NCBI GenBank assembly: GCA_964629655.1
Contig: CAZVQU010000001.1
Location: 612,056 to 676,055, forward strand
DNA: 64,000 nucleotides
Reading direction: 5' to 3'
Source: an uncultured Planctomycetia bacterium
GTDB taxonomy: Bacteria; Omnitrophota; Gorgyraeia; Duberdicusellales; 4484-171
The notes below the pieces were generated by a model. It was given only the letters and a program-made list of their open reading frames with translations. It was not told the origin of the DNA and did no database searches. Made by a program: the position numbers and the translations under genes. This document shows, in pieces, positions 11,706 to 22,130 of this stretch. Every line of letters starts with the position of its first letter. Position 1 is the stretch's first letter.

Positions 11706-11730
11706 GCATACAGTGAAAAAGGAGGATAAA

Positions 11731-12642
11731 ATGAACATTGCCGAAAATATCACTCAACTAGTAGGGAATACTCCTTTGGTGAAGCTAGGCAAGCTCAGTG
11801 CCGGGATTGATGCTACCTTAGTAGTCAAACTAGAGTCTTTTAACCCTTGTTCAAGCGTTAAAGACAGAATTGGGTTGGCGATGATAGAAGATGCTGAGAG
11901 GAAGGGAAAGATTAACAAAGATACCGTTATTGTTGAACCGACTAGCGGCAATACCGGGATTGCTTTGGCTTTTGTCTGTGCTCAAAGAGGATATCGATTG
12001 GTTTTAACTATGCCCGAGAGCATGTCTTTGGAGAGAAGAAAACTACTATCCTGGTTTGGTGCCGAGCTAGTTTTGACACCGGCTGAGGGAGGGATGAAAG
12101 GTGCGATTGAAGAGGCCGAGGAGCTTCTTAAAAAGTATCCTAATGCTTTTATGCCCCAACAATTTAAGAACCCGGCTAATCCTAAAATACACCAAGAGGT
12201 TACAGCTGAAGAGATTTGGCGCGATACTAATGGGGAAATTGATATTTTAATCTCCGGTGTTGGTACCGGAGGAACAATTACCGGCGTAGCGGAGGCTCTT
12301 AAGAAAAAGAAGCCTGAGTTTGAAGCAATCGCTTTAGAGCCAGCAAAATCTCCTATTCTCTCTGGCGGTAAACCCGGTTCACACAAGATCCAAGGCATTG
12401 GCGCAGGTTTTGTTCCTGAGGTATTAAGGAGAGATTTAATAGATGAGATAATTTGCATAGAGGATGAAGATGCAATCTCTATGGCTGATCGGATTGCAAA
12501 AGAGGAAGGAATCCTGGTAGGGAATTCTAGCGGAGCAGCAGTCTGGGCCGGTTTAGAAATTGCTAGGCGTCCAGAAAATAAAGGTAAACTTATTGTAGTA
12601 ATCTTACCAGATACAGGGGAGAGATACTTATCTACTTGGTAG
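11731..12642 (+). CDS. cysK: Cysteine synthase (O-acetylserine or O-phosphoserine sulfhydrylase, PLP-dependent). The track start at 11713 is a GTG; the ATG at 11731 follows AAAAGGAGG.
   Basis: [10 protein letters not shown], the SVKDRIG PLP-lysine motif, and the GTGGT glycine loop. Confidence 0.8.
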
Positions 12643-12671
12643 TAAGTAACCCTGTAATATCAAGGAGGTGA

Positions 12672-13889
12672 ATGATGTCTAAGACAATAGCTGAGATTAA
12701 TGAAAAGATTAAGAAAGGGCAGGTGGTTGTTGTCACTGCTGAGGAGATGATAGGAATCGTTAAAGAAAAAGGAGCTAAAGCTGCGGCCGAAGAAGTGGAT
12801 GTAGTAACTACAGCTACCTTTGGCCCAATGTGTTCTTCAGGTGCCTATCTCAACATCGGGCATGCTAAGCCTAAGATAAAGCTAGGTGGGGGAAAGACTA
12901 CCCTAAATAAAATTGATACATATGCGGGTTTTGCTGCAGTTGATCTTTACATTGGAGCAACTGCCCTAGCTGACGATGATCCCAGGAATAAAGTTTTTCC
13001 GGGAAAATTCAAGTATGGCGGTGGGCATGTAATTGAAGATTTAGCAGCCGGGAAAGATATTGTTTTAGAGGGTGCTGCTTATGGGACAGATTGCTATCCA
13101 GGTAAAGAGCTTAAGACACTGATTAACATAAAAGACATCAACGAAGCAGTGCTTTTCAATCCTAGGAATCTGTATCAAAATTACAATATTGCTGTTAACT
13201 TATCTGACAAGACCATTTATACCTATATGGGAACCTTAAGACCAAAGGTAGGCAATGCAAACTATTGTAGTGCTGGACAACTTTCCCCATTTCTTAATGA
13301 CCCTCTTTACAGAACTATTGGTATTGGTACCAAGATATTCTTAGGCGGAGGCATTGGTTATGTTTCTTGGTGGGGAACTCAACATAATCCTGGAGTTAAG
13401 AGAGCTGACAATAAGACTCCTCTTACGCCAGCAGGAACAGCTGCTGTTATTGGTGACTTAAAACAGATGAGCGATAAGTGGCTTAAGGGGGTTAGTTTCT
13501 TAGGGTATGGAGTAACTCTTAGTGTGGGAATTGGTGTACCTATTCCGATACTCGATGAAGAAATGGCTCAGTTTACTGCTGTATCTGATGATCAACTCTC
13601 TGCGAGCATAGTCGATTATAGTAAAGCTTACCCTCAAGGAATTCCTGAATCTTTAGGAAGAGCTACTTATGCGGAACTTAAAACTGGGAAAATAACTGTA
13701 AGAGGAAGAGAAGTTCCTACCGGGGCAATATCAAGCTATCCTAAGGCAAGAGAGATAGCTGATGAACTTAAAACCTGGATTAAGAAAGGCGACTTTCTTT
13801 TGACTGAGCCAGTGGCTGAATTTCCCGGCCCGGATTCGGGATACAAATTTAAACCTTTAAAGGTCAGAGAAGTAAAAGGAGGTAAGTAG
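12672..13889 (+). CDS. COG1900/DUF39-family protein (the methanogen MA1821-type enzyme for sulfide-dependent homocysteine formation)
   Basis: About 400 aa with the characteristic Gly-rich blocks (KLGGGKTTLN, KYGGGHVIEDL, FLGGGIGYVSWWG). The RBS is AAGGAGG. Confidence 0.6.
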   Translation: MMSKTIAEINEKIKKGQVVVVTAEEMIGIVKEKGAKAAAEEVDVVTTATFGPMCSSGAYLNIGHAKPKIKLGGGKTTLNKIDTYAGFAAVDLYIGATALADDDPRNKVFPGKFKYGGGHVIEDLAAGKDIVLEGAAYGTDCYPGKELKTLINIKDINEAVLFNPRNLYQNYNIAVNLSDKTIYTYMGTLRPKVGNANYCSAGQLSPFLNDPLYRTIGIGTKIFLGGGIGYVSWWGTQHNPGVKRADNKTPLTPAGTAAVIGDLKQMSDKWLKGVSFLGYGVTLSVGIGVPIPILDEEMAQFTAVSDDQLSASIVDYSKAYPQGIPESLGRATYAELKTGKITVRGREVPTGAISSYPKAREIADELKTWIKKGDFLLTEPVAEFPGPDSGYKFKPLKVREVKGGK

Positions 13890-13891
13890 TT

Positions 13892-14299
13892 ATGTACTCC
13901 AAAAAAATAGTTCTACACTTTCCTTCCGATCTTGTTAACAAGTCGATAATTTATAGATTATCAAAAGACTTTGATTTAGAGTTCAATATTCTCAAAGCTC
14001 TTGTTAATCCTGACGAGGAAGGATTGATGGTCCTTGAGCTAAAGGGTGAGAAAGATGAGTATACCAGAGCAGTAAAATACCTAGAAAAAGAGAAGGTTAG
14101 AATTCAGACCTTATCTAAAGATGTAATTCGCGATGAAGATAAGTGTGTTGATTGCGGATTATGTGTCGCTGTCTGTCCGGTAGAGGCCTTTGAAGTAGAT
14201 TCTGATTCAAGAAAGATAGAATTCCACGACGATAAGTGTATTGCTTGTGAGATGTGCGTGAAAGTTTGTCCTTACAAGGCTATGGAGGTAAACTTCTAA
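13892..14299 (+). CDS. NIL-domain ferredoxin with 2x[4Fe-4S] (the MA1822-type partner of COG1900)
   Basis: N-terminal NIL-like domain (about 75 aa), then CVDCGLCVAVCP and CIACEMCVKVCP. The start is 3 nt after the previous stop. Confidence 0.6.
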   Translation: MYSKKIVLHFPSDLVNKSIIYRLSKDFDLEFNILKALVNPDEEGLMVLELKGEKDEYTRAVKYLEKEKVRIQTLSKDVIRDEDKCVDCGLCVAVCPVEAFEVDSDSRKIEFHDDKCIACEMCVKVCPYKAMEVNF

Positions 14300-14308
14300 G
14301 CGAAATTT

Positions 14309-14581
14309 ATGGCAGTAATAAGAATACCTTTGTTATTTCAAGAGGCAGTAGGTGGAGCTACCCAATTAGAGGTTAAGGCAGATAATATTAGCGAGTTGAT
14401 TGGTAACTTAACTAATGAATTTCCTGATCTCAAAGAGAAATTCTATGATACCCAAGGGAGTTTAAGTAAGTTTATCAACATCTATGTTAATGGGGAAGAT
14501 TCCCGGTTTTTAGAAGGCGAGAAAACTCACCTCAATGATAGAGATATCATAGATATTATTCTTCCTATTGCCGGAGGGTAG
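14309..14581 (+). CDS. ThiS/MoaD/CysO-family sulfur-carrier protein ending in Gly-Gly
   Basis: 90 aa with a beta-grasp-like composition. The C-terminal ...LPIAGG stop is the hallmark diglycine for adenylation and thiocarboxylation. Confidence 0.6.
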   Translation: MAVIRIPLLFQEAVGGATQLEVKADNISELIGNLTNEFPDLKEKFYDTQGSLSKFINIYVNGEDSRFLEGEKTHLNDRDIIDIILPIAGG

Positions 14582-14596
14582 GAAAGATTAATTAAG

Positions 14597-15379
14597 ATGG
14601 CACTTAGTCAAGAACAACTCACCAGATACCGGCGAAATATAACCATTCCGGCCATAGGCAGCAAGGGTCAAGAAAAGCTTCTTAACTCGAAGGTGTTAAT
14701 TATTGGTACCGGTGGCCTAGGCTCATCTTGTGCCTATTATTTAGCCGCTGCCGGCATTGGAAAGATTGGCCTAGTTGATTTTGATTTGGTAGAATTAGAT
14801 AACTTGCAGAGGCAAATTCTTCATGCAACCAGAGATATTGGAAAGTCGAAGGTTATATCCGCCAAAGATAAGCTTAACAATCTCAATCCCGAGATAGAGA
14901 TTACTCCCCATAAAGTTAAGTTATCTTCTGAGAATATATTAGATATTGTTAAAGACTATTTGTTATTAGTAGAGTGCTCAGATAACTTTTTAACAAAATA
15001 TCTATTAAATGATACCGCTATTCTTACTAAAAAACCATTGTTCTATGCAGCAGTGTTAAGATTTGAGGGTCAAGCTATGACTATTCTTCCCAGGCAGACT
15101 GCCTGTTATCGCTGTCTATTCCCTAAACCACCCTCCGAAAACGAATTCATCTCACCCAAAGATGCCGGGATTCTAGGAGCTGTTGCTGGGACGATAGGGT
15201 TGGTCCAGGCCAACGAAGTCTTAAAATACATTCTAAATATAGGAGAATTATTGACCAATAAGCTCTTAACTTTTGATTCTCTTGCTACAACTTTTAAGAA
15301 AATAAAAGTTCAGCCTAATCCGAGTTGTCCGGTATGCGGCCAAAATCCTACAATAAGAGAGATTACCGGCAGTAAATAA
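14597..15379 (+). CDS. ThiF/MoeB/HesA-family E1-like adenylyltransferase with a zinc CxxC...CxxC motif and no rhodanese domain
   Basis: LIIGTGGLGSSCAYYLAAAGIGKIGLVDFD nucleotide-binding motif, plus ACYRC and SCPVC. Confidence 0.8.
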   Translation: MALSQEQLTRYRRNITIPAIGSKGQEKLLNSKVLIIGTGGLGSSCAYYLAAAGIGKIGLVDFDLVELDNLQRQILHATRDIGKSKVISAKDKLNNLNPEIEITPHKVKLSSENILDIVKDYLLLVECSDNFLTKYLLNDTAILTKKPLFYAAVLRFEGQAMTILPRQTACYRCLFPKPPSENEFISPKDAGILGAVAGTIGLVQANEVLKYILNIGELLTNKLLTFDSLATTFKKIKVQPNPSCPVCGQNPTIREITGSK

Positions 15380-15486
15380 CTCTTCCTGAATGATCAAATA
15401 CAAGGATTGTAAATATATTTAAATCTGGTAGAATATCGCTTGCGTTAGATAGGTAAAGTTAGATAAATTCAAAGTAAGGGGGAGAT

Positions 15487-16272
15487 ATGACCAAGAAGAT
15501 TTTTAGTAGTGTAGGAGAAAAAGAAGTTACCCGGGCAATTGTCGATGAATTTTCAAAGCAGTTCTCAGAGTATACTGAGAGTGATGTAATTATTATTGGT
15601 GCTGGCCCCAGTGGACTTATGGCTGGTAAAGAATTAGCGCTCGCAGGGCTTAAAGTGCTTATTGTCGAGAGAAATAATTACCTTGGCGGCGGTTTCTGGA
15701 TTGGCGGTTATCTTATGAATAAACTTACCGTAAGGGCACCGGCTGAAGAAATTCTAAAAGAGCTGGGAGTTCCTTACAAAGAAACTAATCCCGGGCTTTT
15801 TGTTGCTGATGGCCCCCATGCTTGCTCTAAGCTTATTGCTGCTGCTTGTGATGCCGGGGTTAAAATAGCTAATATGACTGTCTTTGAAGATATTGTCTTA
15901 AGAGAGAAAAATCGTGTAGCTGGCGCAGTAATTAACTGGACTCCGGTTCAAGCCTTACCGCGGCAAATTACCTGCGTTGATCCGGTAGCTATAGAGGGAA
16001 AGATTGTGATTGATGCTACCGGCCATGATGCGATGGTTTGCCAGAAGATGGAAGAAAGAGACCTGCTTAAAACTAGAGGCTATGGAGCAATGTGGGTTGA
16101 GCGCTCTGAGGATTTATTGGTTGAGCATACCGGCGAAGTATCTCCTGGCCTCATAGTCATTGGTATGGCGGTATCGACTATGTATGGGCTTCCTCGAATG
16201 GGCCCTACTTTCGGCGGAATGCTTCTTTCCGGTAAAAGAGGCGCTGAAGTTGTAAAAGAAAAATTAAAGTAG
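15487..16272 (+). CDS. thi4: Thi4-family thiazole synthase. By eye it is the non-suicide, sulfide-dependent type: the yeast catalytic Cys position reads Thr in ...IDATGHDA....
   Basis: FAD-binding [10 protein letters not shown] and the conserved VAGAVINWT...CVDP...IDATGHDA block. The RBS is AAGGGGGAG. Confidence 0.75.
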
Positions 16273-16284
16273 TCTAAGAATAAA

Positions 16285-17103
16285 ATGTCTAGGCGAAGTC
16301 ATCCCGCCAGGGGTACCATTTCTTCTATTTATCTTTATGGGAGTAGTGGCCTGCCAGAGTATAAAGCAGAAGAAATCACCGACTACCTAAAAAACATATA
16401 TCCTAAAGCAAAAACAGAGCAGAGAGGAGATTTCTTCTCCTTCTTGCTTAAAAGTCCGGACTCTCCTGATATTGAGGAGCTTGCCAGAAAAATTACCTGC
16501 TCCCGGGTTCATAGCGTTAGTGAGCAGCTGAAAGAGTTTTCACCCCTTCCCTTAGAGATTGAATATGAGAAAAAAAGGCTTTTGGGGAATAAACAACTAA
16601 AGGGTGTAATCTACGATGGTTTTCATTTACAAAAAATCTGCAGAGAGCTTCTTGGCTTAAAGGAATTTAAACCTTCATCCTGCCATATAATATTTACCAA
16701 CCAGCTATTAGCTAGTTTCGATAGCAATGATCGGCGCTATCATGTCAGAGTCGGTATCTATGGCCGGCCTAATATCATCTCTGTTCCGGGATTAGTAGAA
16801 GCTTTAGCTAAGCCTAAGGAGTACTACATAAAGATGCAGATGGGTGAGGATACCTTGACCTTAAGTCAGGAATTTAAAGGAGAGATTATCGAGTATGAAG
16901 ATACCCGGATTACAGAATTATTAAAAGGTTATTGCCTTCAAGCCCTTTTCTATCACTTGACCGGAGATCCTTTTTGCTCCGATAAAAAATGCCGCCTTTA
17001 TAATGCTCATTGGCAAAAGGAAGCAATCGAAGCCCAGATAGAGGCTGAGTATGAATTTTGCCTCAAGCATGCTGAGATTACTTCACAGTGGAAAAATAGA
17101 TAA
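16285..17103 (+). CDS. Hypothetical protein with conserved Cys/His (possible metal site). It weakly resembles archaemetzincin-type CX4C motifs.
   Basis: 272 aa, no TM segments. Cys/His-containing motifs are CHIIF, H(V)RVGIYGRP and FYHLTGDPFCSDKKCRLYNAHW. It sits between thi4 and the csoR promoter. Confidence 0.35.
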   Translation: MSRRSHPARGTISSIYLYGSSGLPEYKAEEITDYLKNIYPKAKTEQRGDFFSFLLKSPDSPDIEELARKITCSRVHSVSEQLKEFSPLPLEIEYEKKRLLGNKQLKGVIYDGFHLQKICRELLGLKEFKPSSCHIIFTNQLLASFDSNDRRYHVRVGIYGRPNIISVPGLVEALAKPKEYYIKMQMGEDTLTLSQEFKGEIIEYEDTRITELLKGYCLQALFYHLTGDPFCSDKKCRLYNAHWQKEAIEAQIEAEYEFCLKHAEITSQWKNR

Positions 17104-17145
17104 TAAATACAAGGTATTTCTAAGACGGAAAAGATTACTTTTATC

Positions 17146-17176
17146 TTGACATACCCTAGGGGGGTATGGTATAAAT
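17146..17176 (+). promoter_or_regulatory. Promoter with an embedded CsoR-type operator (GC-rich inverted repeat ATACCC-TAGG-GGGGTAT)
   Basis: TTGACA 17146-17151 overlaps ATACCCTAGGGGGGTATGG, and TATAAAT at 17170-17176 is the -10. The repeat arms ATACCC and GGGTAT are reverse complements. It lies 58 nt upstream of csoR. Confidence 0.55.
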
Positions 17177-17233
17177 GGTTTAGGGATAATAGAGATATAA
17201 CAAGGGTATTGGTTTTAAAATACGAGGTGATAA

Positions 17234-17515
17234 ATGGCGCATAAAACAACTCATAGTGAAAATTTGATTGCTCTGCGAAGAATTGAGGGCCAGATTAAAG
17301 GTATCCAGAAAATGGTTGAAGAAAAGAAATATTGTATAGATATCGTCAATCAGGTTCATGCTTCAATAAGTGCTCTTCGCCGAGTAGCTGAGAAAATTCT
17401 CTCTAAACATATGGAACATTGCGTAGTAGATGCCATAAAGGGGAAATCAGAGTCGCAAAGAAAAGAAAAGATAGATGAGGTAATGAGTGTAATAAGAAAA
17501 ATACATAAGATATGA
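17234..17515 (+). CDS. csoR: CsoR/RcnR/FrmR-family metal-sensing transcriptional repressor
   Basis: 93 aa, all-helical. Conserved Cys (KYCIDI) and the H-x-x-x-C pair (HMEHC) sit at CsoR Cu(I)-ligand positions. The RBS is GAGGTG. Confidence 0.75.
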   Translation: MAHKTTHSENLIALRRIEGQIKGIQKMVEEKKYCIDIVNQVHASISALRRVAEKILSKHMEHCVVDAIKGKSESQRKEKIDEVMSVIRKIHKI

Positions 17516-18528
17516 GAGTAGCTAAAACAATTTTTATCTTGACCTTTATTTTAAGCCTAACAGTTCTACATAACGAAATAAAAGCAGGCTCTCTTTACAA
17601 GGAAATAAATATTATTGGTGGTTATTCCGATCTCAACAAATCGGTTGGTAAGGATAATAGGTCATTAAAGAATTCAATTGGCTTTGAGTATTATGATAAG
17701 TTTTCTGACCAATACGGAGATTATTTAACTGCCGATCTTCAAGTGAGATTAGCTTATGATTCTTTAAAGAATTCCAATGATGCCTGGGCTCTTGAGGTTC
17801 ACAATGCTTTTCTAGATTACAAATTAGGCTTAGGTAAGGCTTTACGTGTAGGGCATTTTGATCCCTCATTTGGGCTTGAACCGGTTCTGGATACGCACGG
17901 TACTTTATTCCAGACCTTAGCTCGCAAGAACATTGGTTTTAAAAAAGATTGGGGCACTGGCATAAGAGGTATTCTTGGTGAGTTTGACTATGAACTTTCT
18001 GCTCAAATTGGCTCGGGGATGGGTATTGAGAGAAAAGACGGAAGTTTTTTGCTCAGTAGCAGGCTCGGGACAGCCCAGGATAGAGATTTTCAATACGGGA
18101 TATCTTTGCTCTATGGTGAAGTGCTTGCCAGTAACGAAACAAAGACTATTCCGGCCCCGGAGCTTATCTCAAACCAGGCTATTCTTAAGAAGAGGATAGG
18201 TTTAGATGGCCAATATTCATCCGGCCCTTATCTACTAAAGGGAGAGTTAGTTTATGGCCAGGATTCCAACGATGATATTCTGGGATCGCTCCTTGAGGTT
18301 GATTACGTTCCTCGGTCTATTCAAGAGTTAGAATTTAAACTGCAAGGTCAGTTTTTCTCAAAAGATTTAGGAAATTCTAATCTTCAAGATATAATTGTTG
18401 GCGCTGGATTGGGCTACAAGCTTAATTCTGACCTTACTCTACGGTTAGCTTATTTTCATGATTTTCGCTCATCAAGCGTAGATAAGGATAGGCAGGTGCT
18501 TTTGCAAGTATACTATTATGGGCTTTAA
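17512..18528 (+). CDS. Putative outer-membrane beta-barrel protein (porin-like)
   Basis: Signal peptide, alternating amphipathic beta-strand pattern with many Y/G/D/N, and a C-terminal aromatic end ...VYYYGL. It overlaps the csoR stop by 4 nt. Confidence 0.45.
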   Translation: MRVAKTIFILTFILSLTVLHNEIKAGSLYKEINIIGGYSDLNKSVGKDNRSLKNSIGFEYYDKFSDQYGDYLTADLQVRLAYDSLKNSNDAWALEVHNAFLDYKLGLGKALRVGHFDPSFGLEPVLDTHGTLFQTLARKNIGFKKDWGTGIRGILGEFDYELSAQIGSGMGIERKDGSFLLSSRLGTAQDRDFQYGISLLYGEVLASNETKTIPAPELISNQAILKKRIGLDGQYSSGPYLLKGELVYGQDSNDDILGSLLEVDYVPRSIQELEFKLQGQFFSKDLGNSNLQDIIVGAGLGYKLNSDLTLRLAYFHDFRSSSVDKDRQVLLQVYYYGL

Positions 18529-18529
18529 G

Positions 18530-19213
18530 ATGAGAAAATTTATTTTAAGTTTAATGCTGTGTTTTTTATCAACTTTTGCTTACTCTGATGATGCGTCTGC
18601 AGCAGTTGGCTGTACCTTAAACGACCCGGATCGTGATGTAATCCGTATTTTCCCAGAATCTACCGGTTATCGAACTGATTTTATAAGCATAAAGGAGAAG
18701 GGTGGGGAGATTTTAGCAGAAGAAATAGAAAAGAAGCTCGGCGATAAACTAGATTCTGCTTATGAGTCTTTAGATGTGCCTTATTCTTACTATACCATTC
18801 TTAAAGGCATGGAGGTCATTGGCTACATTCATGGTGTTAACCAGAAAGGAACTTTTGGAGGAATACAGATTATCTTAGCCAGTGATTTAGAGGGTAAGAT
18901 AATAAATCTTTATTATCAGAAGATATCTTCTCCTGAGGCCAGTAAATTTAGAAACAAAAGATTTGTTGACCAGTTCACAGGACTAACACTGGCAGATTTC
19001 TATCGTCATGATGCTTTAGGGGGTAACGAATATTCTTATGACAAAATAGCAGAAATCAAAGATCCAAGCGAAAACAGCAATCAAGATTTTAAAGCCACCT
19101 TAAGAGGCATAAAGAAGAATTTAATCTTACTTGATGAGTTTATATTAAATAGTAAGTATGATCAGGATTATAACAAGATTAATAAAGGAGGTAATAATGA
19201 GAGTGATGATTAG
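18530..19213 (+). CDS. Secreted protein with an FMN-binding-like domain (similar to the NosR/RnfG/NqrC periplasmic domain). The flavinylation motif is not evident.
   Basis: Signal peptide MRKFILSLMLCFLSTFAYS. The core GVNQKGTFGGIQIILASDLEGKIINLYY...FVDQFTG fits an FMN_bind domain. The track start at 18518 precedes the porin stop. Confidence 0.4.
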   Translation: MRKFILSLMLCFLSTFAYSDDASAAVGCTLNDPDRDVIRIFPESTGYRTDFISIKEKGGEILAEEIEKKLGDKLDSAYESLDVPYSYYTILKGMEVIGYIHGVNQKGTFGGIQIILASDLEGKIINLYYQKISSPEASKFRNKRFVDQFTGLTLADFYRHDALGGNEYSYDKIAEIKDPSENSNQDFKATLRGIKKNLILLDEFILNSKYDQDYNKINKGGNNESDD

Positions 19214-19568
19214 CATTTCAGTATGTCTATTGATTATTTTCACCGGAGCATTAATAAGTGGGTGTGGCCGCTTAGAAGAGTATGGAGAAAGAATCTCCAA
19301 TCAAGAAATCACAAAAATTAGTGATATTCTCAAGAAACCAAAGAGTTATGACCAGAAAACACTTATTATTGAGGGCAAGATCATGGTTGAATGTCCTGCT
19401 GGCTGTTGGTTTACTTTAAGAGATGACTCAGGAGTTATCTATGTTGACCTTGGGCCTTCAGGGTTTGCCATAGCTCAGCATACAGGAGATGAGGTTTTAG
19501 TCGTTGGAGAGATTGTAGATAAGAAACCAAATCCAATAATGATCGGAAAAGGGGTGAAGATAAAATGA
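19197..19568 (+). CDS. Small lipoprotein, OB-fold-like, with a CxxGC motif
   Basis: AGGAGG RBS, then an ATG at 19197. There is a lipobox LISGC. The motif ECPAGCWF is followed by beta-rich sequence. The track start at 19158 is upstream of the RBS. Confidence 0.45.
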   Translation: MRVMISISVCLLIIFTGALISGCGRLEEYGERISNQEITKISDILKKPKSYDQKTLIIEGKIMVECPAGCWFTLRDDSGVIYVDLGPSGFAIAQHTGDEVLVVGEIVDKKPNPIMIGKGVKIK

Positions 19569-20749
19569 AATTAGCAATATTAGCCTTTAAGAATCTCAAA
19601 AGAAAAAAGATTCGTTCTTTCCTGACCATAGGAGGAGTTGCTATTGCTGTGGCGGTGTTAGTGAGCCTGATGGGTTTCAATCTTGGCTATCAAAAAGCTC
19701 TAGGCAGTGATATTGATAAGATGGGATATCAGCTCTTAGTTACTGCCAAAGGGTGTCCTTATGAGGCTGCAACGTTAATGTTAAAGGGCGGCGGCGGGTT
19801 ACGCTACATGGAAGAGGATGTATACAATAAGATTGTCCAAGATAGCCGTATAGACAAAGTCACTCCTCAATTAATATACACTGTCTTTGATCCTCAAAGA
19901 AGCGAAGGCCAAGGTGGCTTTGCGATGTACATGGGGATTTTAGATTCTTATCTGGAGTTAAAACCTTGGACTAAATTTAAGAGTGGCCGATGGTTTTCTG
20001 GTGAGGATGTTGAAGAGGTTGTTATGGGCTATGAGGCTGCCGAGGTTGAACAACGTTTGGTTGGTGATAAAATTTTCATTCCAGGCATTGATAGAGTTCT
20101 TAAAGTCGTAGGTATATTTGATAGAACCGGCACCCAAGATGACGGAGTGATATTTTTACCTCTAGCAACTTCACAAAGGATATTTAACCTTCCTGCTAAA
20201 TTAACTGGAATTGGCATAAAGTTAAAAGACATAAGAAAATTAGCAGAGTTTGAAGAAGATTTGTATGATGAGCCAGGCATCCAGGTAATCAGCATGGCTC
20301 AAGTAAGGGGAACAATTCTTAATCTCATATCTTCGGCAAAGATTTTAGTAAACTCAGTAGCGGTAATAGCTATTTTTATAGCAATAATCGGAGTAATAAA
20401 TACTATCCTAATGTCTGTATTTGAGCGAACTCAAGAAATTGGCGTAATGAAAGCTATTGGTGCTTCCAAGCTAGATATTTTTCAAATTATCTGGATCGAA
20501 ACAACTCTTATTTGTGTCTTAGGCGGGGTTGCCGGCAGCCTCGTAGCTATTTTAGGCGGAAACGTAATTGAGCACATATTAAAACAAATCTTGCCTTATG
20601 CTCCTAGTGGGAAGTTAGTGCTTATTACTCCAAATCTTCTCCTAGCCTCATTCCTCGGGGCTATTATTTTGGGATTGATCTCAGGGATTTACCCGGCAGC
20701 TCGGGCAGCATCAATGAGACCGATTGAGGCAATCAGGCGCGGAGGATAA
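19565..20749 (+). CDS. ABC transporter permease of the FtsX/MacB/LolCE family
   Basis: TM1, then a periplasmic domain of about 220 aa, then three C-terminal TM helices with the conserved FtsX region (LMSVFERTQEIGVMKAIGAS). Confidence 0.8.
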   Translation: MKLAILAFKNLKRKKIRSFLTIGGVAIAVAVLVSLMGFNLGYQKALGSDIDKMGYQLLVTAKGCPYEAATLMLKGGGGLRYMEEDVYNKIVQDSRIDKVTPQLIYTVFDPQRSEGQGGFAMYMGILDSYLELKPWTKFKSGRWFSGEDVEEVVMGYEAAEVEQRLVGDKIFIPGIDRVLKVVGIFDRTGTQDDGVIFLPLATSQRIFNLPAKLTGIGIKLKDIRKLAEFEEDLYDEPGIQVISMAQVRGTILNLISSAKILVNSVAVIAIFIAIIGVINTILMSVFERTQEIGVMKAIGASKLDIFQIIWIETTLICVLGGVAGSLVAILGGNVIEHILKQILPYAPSGKLVLITPNLLLASFLGAIILGLISGIYPAARAASMRPIEAIRRGG

Positions 20750-20752
20750 AAT

Positions 20753-21445
20753 ATGAGTGAGTGTATAGTAAGAGGGAAAAAACTAAAAAAAATATATAGG
20801 CTTCCAGCTGAGGACATTGTTGCCTTGAAAGGAATAGACTTTGAAATCCAAAAGGGTGAGTTTGTGGCTGTTATTGGTCCTTCTGGTGCTGGCAAAACTA
20901 CGCTTCTTAATCTCATCGGGTGCTTAGACGGAGTCTCTTCAGGTAATTTAGAGGTCTTAGGATATGATTTATCTAAAGCCAAAGAGAAACATTTGCCTAA
21001 AATACGGAGGAAGAATATCGGGTTTATATTCCAGGAATTCTATTTAATTCCTTCTTTAACTGCTTTGGAGAACGTAGAGCTTTCTTTGCATTTTTCTAGG
21101 CTACCTAAAGAGAACGGCAGAGCAACAGAGATTTTGAAAAGTGTCGGATTGGGAAAACGAATTAACCATTTTCCTAGAGAGCTTTCCGGAGGCGAGATGC
21201 AAAGAGTTGCGATTGCCAGAGCTTTAATTACTTCTCCAGAGATACTTTTAGCTGATGAACCCACAGGAAATTTAGATACTAGAAACACTCAAGGAATTTT
21301 TAGCCTTTTCAGAGAGCTAAATCAAACTGAGGGCATAACTATAGTAGTAGCAACCCATAATATTAAGTTTGGTTATCAATCCGATAAGGTTATCCATTTA
21401 GTTGATGGTAATATTGACAGAGAAGAGAGGATAAAGCATGGATAA
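20753..21445 (+). CDS. ABC transporter ATP-binding protein (MacB/LolD type)
   Basis: Walker A GPSGAGKTT, signature LSGGEMQRV, Walker B LLADEPTG, H-loop ATHN. Confidence 0.85.
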   Translation: MSECIVRGKKLKKIYRLPAEDIVALKGIDFEIQKGEFVAVIGPSGAGKTTLLNLIGCLDGVSSGNLEVLGYDLSKAKEKHLPKIRRKNIGFIFQEFYLIPSLTALENVELSLHFSRLPKENGRATEILKSVGLGKRINHFPRELSGGEMQRVAIARALITSPEILLADEPTGNLDTRNTQGIFSLFRELNQTEGITIVVATHNIKFGYQSDKVIHLVDGNIDREERIKHG

Positions 21446-22130
21446 AGCTATTGAGGCTATCAATTTAAAGAAATACTACACTCGGGGTTCAGAACTGGTT
21501 AAGGCTCTTGATGGAGTTAACATTGCCATAAGAAAAGGTGAAATTATCTCGATAGTCGGGCCGTCTGGCTCAGGTAAGACGACTTTACTTAATTTGGTCA
21601 GCTGTCTGGATCTGCCAACTGACGGAAATATAAAGATAAACGGAGAGGATATTACTAAATTTAAAGAGTCGCAGCTAATTGAAATCAGGCGAAAAAACTT
21701 AGGCTTTATTTTTCAACAGTTCCATCTTATACTTACCTTAACAGTTAGAGAGAACGTAGAGTTACCGTTAATTTTTGCTAAGAAAAATATAAATGCAAAG
21801 AAGATTTCTCAAACCTTAGAAAGAGTCGGGTTAAAAGGGAAAGAAAACCTCAGAGTTGATACCTTAAATGGAGGGGACAAGCAGAGAGTAGCTATTGCCC
21901 GTGCCCTTGTGAATGATCCCAAGATCCTTATTGCCGATGAGCCTACTGGAGAGCTGGAGACAGAAGTCCGCAACTCTATTTTAGATCTTTTTAGAAAGTT
22001 AGCCCAGTCAGGTTTAGCGATTGTTGTTGCGACTCATGATCTAGAGCTTGCTGAGGCCGCGGAGAGAATAATCTATCTTCAGGATGGTAAAATAGTATCA
22101 AAGTCTGAATCAAGCCTGTACTTTAGTTAA
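21438..22130 (+). CDS. Second ABC transporter ATP-binding protein, with a variant signature motif
   Basis: Walker A GPSGSGKTT, signature LNGGDKQRV (Ser to Asn), Walker B ILIADEPTGELE. It overlaps the upstream ATPase by 8 nt. Confidence 0.8.
   Translation: MDKAIEAINLKKYYTRGSELVKALDGVNIAIRKGEIISIVGPSGSGKTTLLNLVSCLDLPTDGNIKINGEDITKFKESQLIEIRRKNLGFIFQQFHLILTLTVRENVELPLIFAKKNINAKKISQTLERVGLKGKENLRVDTLNGGDKQRVAIARALVNDPKILIADEPTGELETEVRNSILDLFRKLAQSGLAIVVATHDLELAEAAERIIYLQDGKIVSKSESSLYFS

Follow-up and report, generated by a model that had tools for sequence, protein, structure and literature searches.

A predicted CsoR operator within the promoter of an envelope and ABC transporter operon in an uncultured Omnitrophota bacterium

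Type-2 operators of the CsoR family consist of two short G/C tracts with a few bases between them and AT-rich inverted repeats on the outside (PMC3902906). In the streptomycete consensus, ATATACCCCTNAGGGGTATAT, positions 3 to 8 and 14 to 19 around an N5 spacer are the most conserved, and the dyad 5'-TAC-X9-GTA-3' is common to the operators of Streptomyces lividans, Staphylococcus aureus, Listeria monocytogenes and Bacillus subtilis (PMC3902906). Any base swap in this dyad abolishes binding of the S. lividans CsoR, which occupies each site as two tetramers (PMC3902906). The site of the Ni sensor InrS was found with the same CsoR/CstR consensus repeat (PMC3320959). Here we describe such a site in a 64-kb stretch of DNA (called the window; contig CAZVQU010000001.1) from an uncultured Omnitrophota bacterium. 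The site is a 19-bp inverted repeat that fills the spacer of a promoter, and we consider it highly probable, from sequence comparison, that it is the operator of the CsoR encoded 59 nucleotides (nt) downstream and that it controls a negatively autoregulated, copper-inducible operon. The operator itself is a known type of site; the operon behind it is an envelope and ATP-binding cassette (ABC) transporter cassette and not the usual copper pump. Our reading builds on the architecture of the promoter, the match to published operators, the conservation of the site at the heads of operons and a Cu(I)-type set of residues in the protein, all of which were observed directly.

The promoter-operator module

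The module and the gene of its presumed repressor comprise the following features.

17146 to 17151, forward strand: -35 hexamer TTGACA, identical to the consensus at 6/6 positions; its final A opens the ATACCC of the operator, and it is invariant in 10 aligned orthologous promoters.
17150 to 17168, no strand assigned: predicted operator, the inverted repeat CATACCC-TAGGG-GGGTATG, which is of type 2 of the CsoR family and takes up the whole spacer of the promoter.
17167 to 17175, forward strand: extended -10 element TGgTATAAA, with the TG at 17167-17168 and the hexamer at 17170-17175, separated from the -35 by an 18-nt spacer.
17224 to 17229, forward strand: Shine-Dalgarno-like GAGGTG, read from the sequence, 4 nt 5' of the csoR ATG.
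17234 to 17515, forward strand: csoR, encoding a CsoR/RcnR-family repressor of 93 amino acids (aa) (PF02583, E=2.8e-27) with Tyr33-Cys34-His59-Cys63-Glu82 and with Lys79 at position C.

An earlier note on this DNA had placed an inverted repeat between a TTGACA -35 and a TATAAAT -10, and the sequence bears out this arrangement. The window reads, in order, TTTTATC, TTGACA, TACCCTAGGGGGGTA, TGG, TATAAAT and GG, with TATAAAT at 17170-17176. The repeat that had been written as ATACCC-TAGG-GGGGTAT is the 17-mer ATACCCTAGGGGGGTAT at 17151-17167; the 17-mer is the same, but it divides as ATACCC-TAGGG-GGGTAT, and the perfect arms extend one base further on each side, to 7 nt (CATACCC, 17150-17156; GGGTATG, 17162-17168) around a 5-nt gap. 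The TAC-N9-GTA core at 17152-17166 reads TAC CCTAGGGGG GTA. An 18-nt spacer separates TTGACA from TATAAA, and the operator occupies all of it and overlaps both promoter elements: it includes the final A of the -35, and the TG of its right arm is the TGn of the extended -10. Downstream, csoR begins 59 nt from the module.

The local GC content is 33-36%, and the repeat had been called very unusual for AT-rich DNA. This is the case for the exact pattern ATACCC-N5-GGGTAT, which is present in 1 copy in 64 kb and in 0/100 dinucleotide-preserving shuffles, but not for the pattern with 1-2 mismatches, which is not rarer than chance in the window. Hence, the operator signal rests on the perfect match together with its position. 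A consensus promoter scan of the window did not list the csoR promoter, because its rules, which accept spacers up to 18 nt, require a T at position 6 of the -10, where TATAAA has A; the orthologous promoter in L168, TGgTATAAT, has a 12/12 score with the TG and the 18-nt spacer. A GGGTAT half-site at 17205-17210, in the 5' untranslated region, was considered as a second site and rejected, as no TAC lies at the distance needed to pair with it and neither L165 nor L167 keeps it.

The resemblance to CsoR operators, noted earlier, was upheld by alignment. The site is identical to the Streptomyces type-2 consensus at 12/12 of the most conserved positions (3-8 and 14-19) and has both the N5 spacer and the TAC-X9-GTA dyad. 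It agrees at 13/17 bases with each of the S. lividans copZA1 and copZA2 cores validated by isothermal titration calorimetry; these sites and the consensus served as the references for the comparison. The site thus has G/C-tract arms, the TAC-X9-GTA dyad, overlap with a predicted promoter and conservation before orthologous regulons, as expected of a type-2 operator. The earlier note had staked its proposal on alignment to validated CsoR sites and on the presence of the motif upstream of csoR in relatives. The first gave the agreement described above, and the second did not refute the proposal either, the same module heading the operons in L165, L167, L168/169, L087 and L089.

For this comparison, 160 loci with csoR homologues were fetched from genome and metagenome collections, of which 156 were usable (individual loci and contigs are given by L numbers). 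The GC-rich TAC-N9-GTA motif occurs at 1.55/kb in the region from -300 to +45 of csoR homologues and at 0.0335/kb in the remaining 1.55 Mb of the same 156 loci, a 46-fold enrichment upstream of csoR homologues that extends over many phyla; 70/156 loci carry the site. The 15-mer TACCCTAGGGGGGTA is found, identical, upstream of csoR in Nocardia, Nonomuraea, Pimelobacter and alphaproteobacterial metagenome-assembled genomes (MAGs), and a TTGACA that abuts TAC...GTA and is followed by TG is present also in L007, L010, L011, L016, L021, L095 and L104, which are Omnitrophota- or Planctomycetota-labelled MAGs. Among the closest relatives, whose CsoR proteins are 63-83% identical to that of the window, CTTGACATACCCTAGGGGGGTATGGTATAA is identical in L165, L167, L168/169 and L087, nearly identical in L089 and has two mismatches in L005. 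L095 also has an identical module. An alignment of 10 promoters contains the invariant block CTTGACATA...TAGGG..G.A..GTATA between flanks that cannot be aligned, so that a module of about 30 bp is invariant at the heads of orthologous Omnitrophota operons while the flanking sequence diverges. In L087, L089, L165, L167 and L005, one or two genes of the operon precede csoR. No site is found immediately before csoR in these loci; it stands at the operon head, another 0.5-1.4 kb upstream. The site therefore behaves as an operator embedded in a promoter and not as a sequence tied to the csoR coding region.

This conservation bears on the possibility that the repeat has no protein partner and is either a chance palindrome or a terminator or attenuator hairpin of the upstream DUF6775 gene, conservation being that of the promoter elements only. 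An 8-bp hairpin can form in the RNA fold of 17104-17200, the upstream gene ends at 17103, and the lack of rarity of the mismatched pattern would fit a chance origin. However, the stem is followed by GGTATAAATGG and not by a T-run, no terminator is called at this place by the scan, the stability of the fold does not significantly exceed that of shuffled sequences (z=-1.66) and there is no Rfam match; on these grounds a Rho-independent terminator or other RNA element was rejected. The repeat also lies between the -35 and the -10, hence upstream of the likely transcription start. Moreover, a promoter spacer normally drifts, yet this one is invariant across orthologues with unalignable flanks, and the motif tracks csoR in unrelated phyla with different upstream genes. 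We regard a repeat without a partner as very improbable.

Variants of the module were seen in several places. The same promoter frame is present with ATAGGGTAGGGGGGTAT in L091, L092, L094, L096 (about 45 nt upstream of csoR) and L093, whose csoR relatives have about 54% identity; in this variant the left arm has GGG and not CCC, which breaks the TAC/GTA dyad and the palindrome, and the rest is kept. In Kribbella (L048, L049, L077 and L082) and in L028 and L066, 2-3 tandem TAC-N9-GTA sites about 32-37 bp apart precede actinobacterial csoR genes. In addition, the Logan contigs L001, L002 and L004, from different sequencing runs, all start at window position 17148, inside the -35 (GACATACCC...). 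This shared start is likely a branch in the de Bruijn graph, the module being identical in co-occurring genomes that differ on both sides.

The CsoR protein and the proposed mechanism

The csoR product matches PF02583 (Trns_repr_metal) with 95.3 bits against a cut-off of 22.8 (E=2.8e-27). Its closest structures in the PDB are the CsoR proteins of S. lividans (4ADZ, E=1e-18) and Geobacillus (4M1P, 3e-18), followed by InrS (4e-10) and FrmR (3e-3). Tyr33, Cys34, His59, Cys63 and Glu82 are invariant in 30 aligned homologues and align to Tyr74, Cys75, His100, Cys104 and Glu122 of S. lividans CsoR, in whose residue numbering an offset of 3 was inferred from the Cys position. Judged by the names of its homologues, the protein comes from a member of Candidatus Omnitrophota. 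The X-Y-Z ligand pattern Cys-His-Cys is present as Cys34, His59 and Cys63. In the second shell, position A is Tyr33, position B is Glu82 and position C, three residues before B, is the non-acidic Lys79. Tyr at position A is reported to predict Cu(I) selectivity accurately and always occurs with His at Y and Glu or Asp at B, never with an acidic residue at C; InrS has Pro and not Tyr at A and an acidic residue at C (PMC4235346). Among the residues expected to contact DNA, the essential Arg57 of S. lividans corresponds to Arg16 and Gln81 to Gln40, with the offset inferred as above.

We hypothesize that metal-free CsoR binds the site in the spacer and that, as in S. lividans, two tetramers would be anchored on the TAC/GTA dyad and the G-tracts. 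Bound apo-CsoR would block RNA polymerase and so keep csoR and the six closely spaced genes behind it repressed. Cu(I), coordinated by Cys34'-His59-Cys63 and coupled through Tyr33 and Glu82 to the release of DNA, would then free the promoter. The outcome would be negative autoregulation and copper induction of the whole operon, with transcription expected to start near 17182. By analogy with the characterized repressors, we infer the binding by CsoR and its stoichiometry, where transcription starts and how far the transcript extends, and that copper acts as the effector in vivo. Autoregulation and metal-responsive control of the whole operon had been suggested earlier, and the operator match, the conservation and the Cu(I)-CsoR fingerprint lead to the same prediction.

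The downstream cassette, its relatives and its inducer

Six genes follow csoR.

17512 to 18528, forward strand: putative beta-barrel outer-membrane protein of 338 aa, with weak Porin_O_P/OprF matches below threshold; the overlap between its start and the stop of csoR is 4 nt long.
18518 to 19213, forward strand: secreted protein or lipoprotein of 231 aa whose fold is RnfG/NqrC-like (FMN_bind); translation probably begins at 18530 (MRKF...).
19197 to 19568, forward strand: lipoprotein of 123 aa with a YgiW/BOF-like oligonucleotide/oligosaccharide-binding (OB) fold and an invariant Cys66-x-x-Gly-Cys70-Trp71.
19565 to 20749, forward strand: MacB-type (type VII ABC) permease (MacB_PCD, E=1.1e-21; FtsX, E=1.1e-20).
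20753 to 21445, forward strand: ABC ATPase 1, LolD/FtsE/MacB-like, with the canonical signature LSGGE.
21438 to 22130, forward strand: ABC ATPase 2, 49% identical to ATPase 1, with the degenerate signature LNGGD.

Between csoR and 22130, neighboring genes share 4-11 nt or stand no more than 9 nt apart, and a scan found no terminator-like sites between them from csoR to the second ATPase. Both ATPases match ABC_tran (E of about 1e-33 to 1e-36). ATPase 2 is present only in some cassettes (the window and L178), a single ATPase being found in L168, L174, L175 and L177; its LNGGD signature may point to a heterodimeric ATPase with one degenerate site. The putative outer-membrane protein of 338 aa is kept in the cassettes of L168, L174, L175, L176 and L177. 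We considered the cassette as a MacAB-TolC pump and rejected this assignment, as it has no MacA/HlyD adaptor and no TolC-type outer-membrane factor, and the porin matches of the outer-membrane protein are below threshold.

Neither the 231-aa nor the 123-aa protein could be placed in a usable family by searches of Pfam and NCBIfam. With 2,577 homologues at E<=0.001, the 231-aa protein represents a very large and unusually conserved family, whose Omnitrophota-, Poribacteria- and Eisenbacteria-labelled members are about 55-70% (often about 60%) identical; among the 120 matches listed, none has a Pfam domain or an informative name, and the window protein itself has no Pfam match. Its AlphaFold (AF2) model has a mean predicted local distance difference test (pLDDT) score of 90.9 and resembles RnfG in Foldseek (7zc6_G, E=6.9e-5, template modeling score of about 0.5). 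Two residues are invariant, His105 and the Cys32 that comes immediately behind the signal peptide, where the motif AAVGC(T/S)LNDPDRD is also found; inspection by eye showed no flavinylation motif, no dedicated test having been made. The AF2 model of the 123-aa protein (pLDDT 83.7) matches YgiW (1nnx, E=2e-5), the sequence matches NCBIfam stress_OB_fold at E=0.0014, and a 42%-identical homologue (P0125) has a weak match to DUF4920, on which a literature search found nothing. For both proteins the fold predictions give folds and not functions. The gene of the OB-fold protein is always directly upstream of that of the MacB-type permease, including in a Chloroflexi-labelled MAG (L170), and stands beside TonB-ExbBD in L172. 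The 123-aa protein recalls CusF, an OB-fold, Trp-capped Cu(I) chaperone, by analogy only; CusF is absent from its top 50 Foldseek matches.

The cassette occupies a chromosomal slot shared with sister genomes, after ThiS-ThiF-Thi4-DUF6775 or MetX-MetW and before birA. In the sister genomes L005, L089, L165 and L167, the same module in this slot precedes a copper-type operon with genes for a YHS plus cupredoxin protein, an RnfD-like membrane protein, CsoR, an OEP, an HMBD-containing adaptor and a CusA-like resistance-nodulation-division (RND) pump. Hence, csoR orthologues at 63-83% identity sit with YHS-cupredoxin and CusCBA-like genes behind an identical module, and the slot holds a MacB-type cassette in the window (17104-22130), as in L168, and a CusCBA-type cassette in L165 (5586-12890), L167, L005 and L089.

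The gene directly upstream of the operator (16285-17103) encodes a DUF6775/DUF7001 'probable metallopeptidase' (E=1.7e-79) and keeps its place next to the CusCBA-type cassette in L165 and L167. The RnfD/NqrB-like membrane protein of L165 (6271-7011) matches PF03116 with E=1.8e-6. It and the RnfG/NqrC-fold protein of the window cassette are homologues of neighboring flavin-carrying Rnf/Nqr subunits, each in an operon with a predicted copper sensor. MacB/OB-fold modules and csoR loci lie amid genes for sulfur, cysteine and Fe-S metabolism in L170 (3691-14474), L168 (11323-13120) and the window (11713-16272), the neighbors including Rrf2, ThiF, cysteine desulfurase, NifU, cysteine synthase, HcyBio, NIL-ferredoxin, ThiS and Thi4. 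The insertion site may account for this by coincidence, or copper and sulfur may be linked functionally.

Among the contexts examined, Omnitrophota carry cassettes of the window type, and so does at least one unrelated neighborhood with an Eisenbacteria-labelled member; the label is carried by the RnfG-fold protein of L175. The cassette is headed by csoR and TAC-N9-GTA in L168/169, L174, L175 and L177 and lacks csoR in L172/173 (beside TonB-ExbBD), L176, L178 and L179; the Poribacteria-labelled versions are without csoR. Among the cassettes lacking csoR, L172 has only a degenerate, non-palindromic TACGCGGCAGGGGTA in place of the operator, and L176, L178 and L179 have none. This distribution bears on the idea that a different, unlinked transcription factor binds the site and that csoR is a passenger. 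We found no specific support for such a factor, the point in its favor being that only one site is visible in the window. Across phyla the motif goes with csoR homologues at 46-fold enrichment, none of the four cassette contexts without csoR has it, and the site matches sites bound experimentally by CsoR, all of which speak against an unlinked factor, to which we give next to no credence.

Several points weigh against copper-responsive control by the encoded CsoR. No CopA, CopZ, CusCBA or multicopper oxidase was recognized in the window operon, and none of the ten large open reading frames scanned elsewhere in the window is a copper gene (no CopA, CusA or multicopper oxidase). There is no second site in the 64-kb window, and no wider regulon is visible there. 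At the level of the cassette, csoR stands at the head in 5/9 contexts examined and is missing from 4/9. In the protein, the RLXR motif reads A13-L-R-R16, so that its first Arg is Ala13 in the clade of the window. The W-X-Y-Z pattern alone does not predict the metal (PMC4235346), and the N-terminal His7 conserved in the clade lies near position W, which Ni/Co sensors use; it belongs to the sequence H-K-T-T-H (residues 3-7, window 17240-17254), of which at least 90% of 30 homologues have His7 and the closest ones commonly have His3. Finally, this type of operator is common to InrS and CstR, and InrS, whose site was found by the same CsoR/CstR consensus, senses Ni (PMC3320959); the operator alone therefore does not identify the effector.

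Some of these points would fit a variant that keeps this operator and repressor but has an effector other than copper in vivo: Ni or Co, as for InrS, persulfide or another thiol-reactive sulfur species, as for CstR, or some further signal, with the MacB-type cassette handling that stress. The shared operator type, the conserved His7 (often with His3) near position W and the window cassette without a known copper gene agree with this view. So do the sulfur-related neighbors, namely Rrf2, ThiF, cysteine desulfurase and cysteine synthase in L170, cysteine desulfurase and NifU in L168, and ThiS/ThiF/Thi4 ahead of the window locus. However, the copper-type cassette of L165 has the same sulfur neighborhood, which therefore reflects the insertion site and not the cargo. 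CstR-type sensors are not known to have the His at position Y, which is invariant here as His59. The closest orthologues (63-83%) have YHS-cupredoxin and CusCBA-type genes behind the identical module, and the nearest solved structures are Cu(I)-CsoRs and not InrS or FrmR. Moreover, the combination of Tyr at A, Glu at B and Lys79 at C is the reported Cu(I) signature and is absent from all known Ni sensors (PMC4235346). On balance, a non-copper effector appears unlikely, and copper remains our preferred inducer.

Whether the cargo also handles copper is a separate matter. It is possible, though we advance it tentatively and as the less probable case, that the six-gene cassette is an undescribed copper-responsive envelope system and thus a new copper-handling system. 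If so, the type VII ABC mechanotransmitter and a thiolate metallochaperone resembling CusF could, by analogy, extract or expel periplasmic Cu(I), and the cassette could be interchangeable with CusCBA behind one portable promoter-operator module of about 30 bp. A literature search returned no description of such a cassette, and of the 12 top-ranked papers on CsoR with MacB, FtsX or Omnitrophota none mentions CsoR.

The findings provide a regulatory annotation in a phylum without cultured representatives or a characterized metal sensor. Omnitrophota- and Planctomycetota-labelled MAGs and an Eisenbacteria-linked locus share the operator-in-spacer design (TTGACA-TACCC..GGGTA-TGnTAnnnT), and Actinobacteria have related sites. 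Where a CsoR operator is conserved, it gives a strong clue to what the genes under it do; here the clue leads to a widespread envelope cassette whose RnfG-fold and OB-fold members have no assigned families, and to a natural swap between this cassette and CusCBA at one locus. Whether the cassette is a new copper-handling system thus becomes directly testable.

Comparison with known systems

The type-2 operators of S. lividans csoR, copZA1 and copZA2 likewise have ATACCC/GGGTAT arms, an N5 center, the TAC-X9-GTA dyad and overlap with a promoter, and csoR is autoregulated there, as predicted for the window. In contrast to the Streptomyces sites, the predicted operator of the window is a single site placed exactly in the spacer, sharing bases with the -35 and with the TG of the extended -10. 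The tandem sites upstream of actinobacterial csoR (L048, L049, L077, L082, L028 and L066) differ from it in number. Unlike the 21-nt Streptomyces consensus, the window site does not keep the AT-rich outer flanks (AC...GG). The host, an uncultured Omnitrophota bacterium with about 35-40% GC locally, also differs from the reference species of type-2 sites.

The repressor shares the PF02583 fold, the Cys-His-Cys ligands, the Tyr-Glu second shell and the Arg57/Gln81 equivalents with the Cu(I)-CsoRs of Mycobacterium tuberculosis (2HH7), S. lividans (4ADZ), Geobacillus (4M1P) and B. subtilis. It differs from them in its short length (93 aa), the Ala in RLXR, the N-terminal H-K-T-T-H and a loop between alpha2 and alpha3 that is 2-3 residues longer, and the genes behind it are not copA/copZ. 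InrS, the Ni sensor of Synechocystis, and CstR, the persulfide sensor of S. aureus, belong to the same family and use the same class of inverted-repeat operator overlapping the -10 box, whereas the window protein has the CsoR pattern at positions A, C and Y.

For the cargo, the closest described systems are transporters. MacAB-TolC and LolCDE likewise combine a permease with MacB_PCD and FtsX domains, LolD/FtsE-like ATPases and outer-membrane and periplasmic partners encoded alongside. In contrast to MacAB-TolC, no gene of the cassette encodes a HlyD, Biotin_lipoyl or OEP domain, and a porin-like barrel, an RnfG-fold protein and an OB-fold protein are found instead. Classical cus operons are under the two-component control of CusRS and are not known to be under that of CsoR. 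In the sister genomes, the same module at the same site precedes a CusCFBA/CusCBA-like RND operon with an OEP, an HMBD adaptor, a CusA-like pump and a YHS-cupredoxin protein, whereas in the window a different cassette stands at that site.

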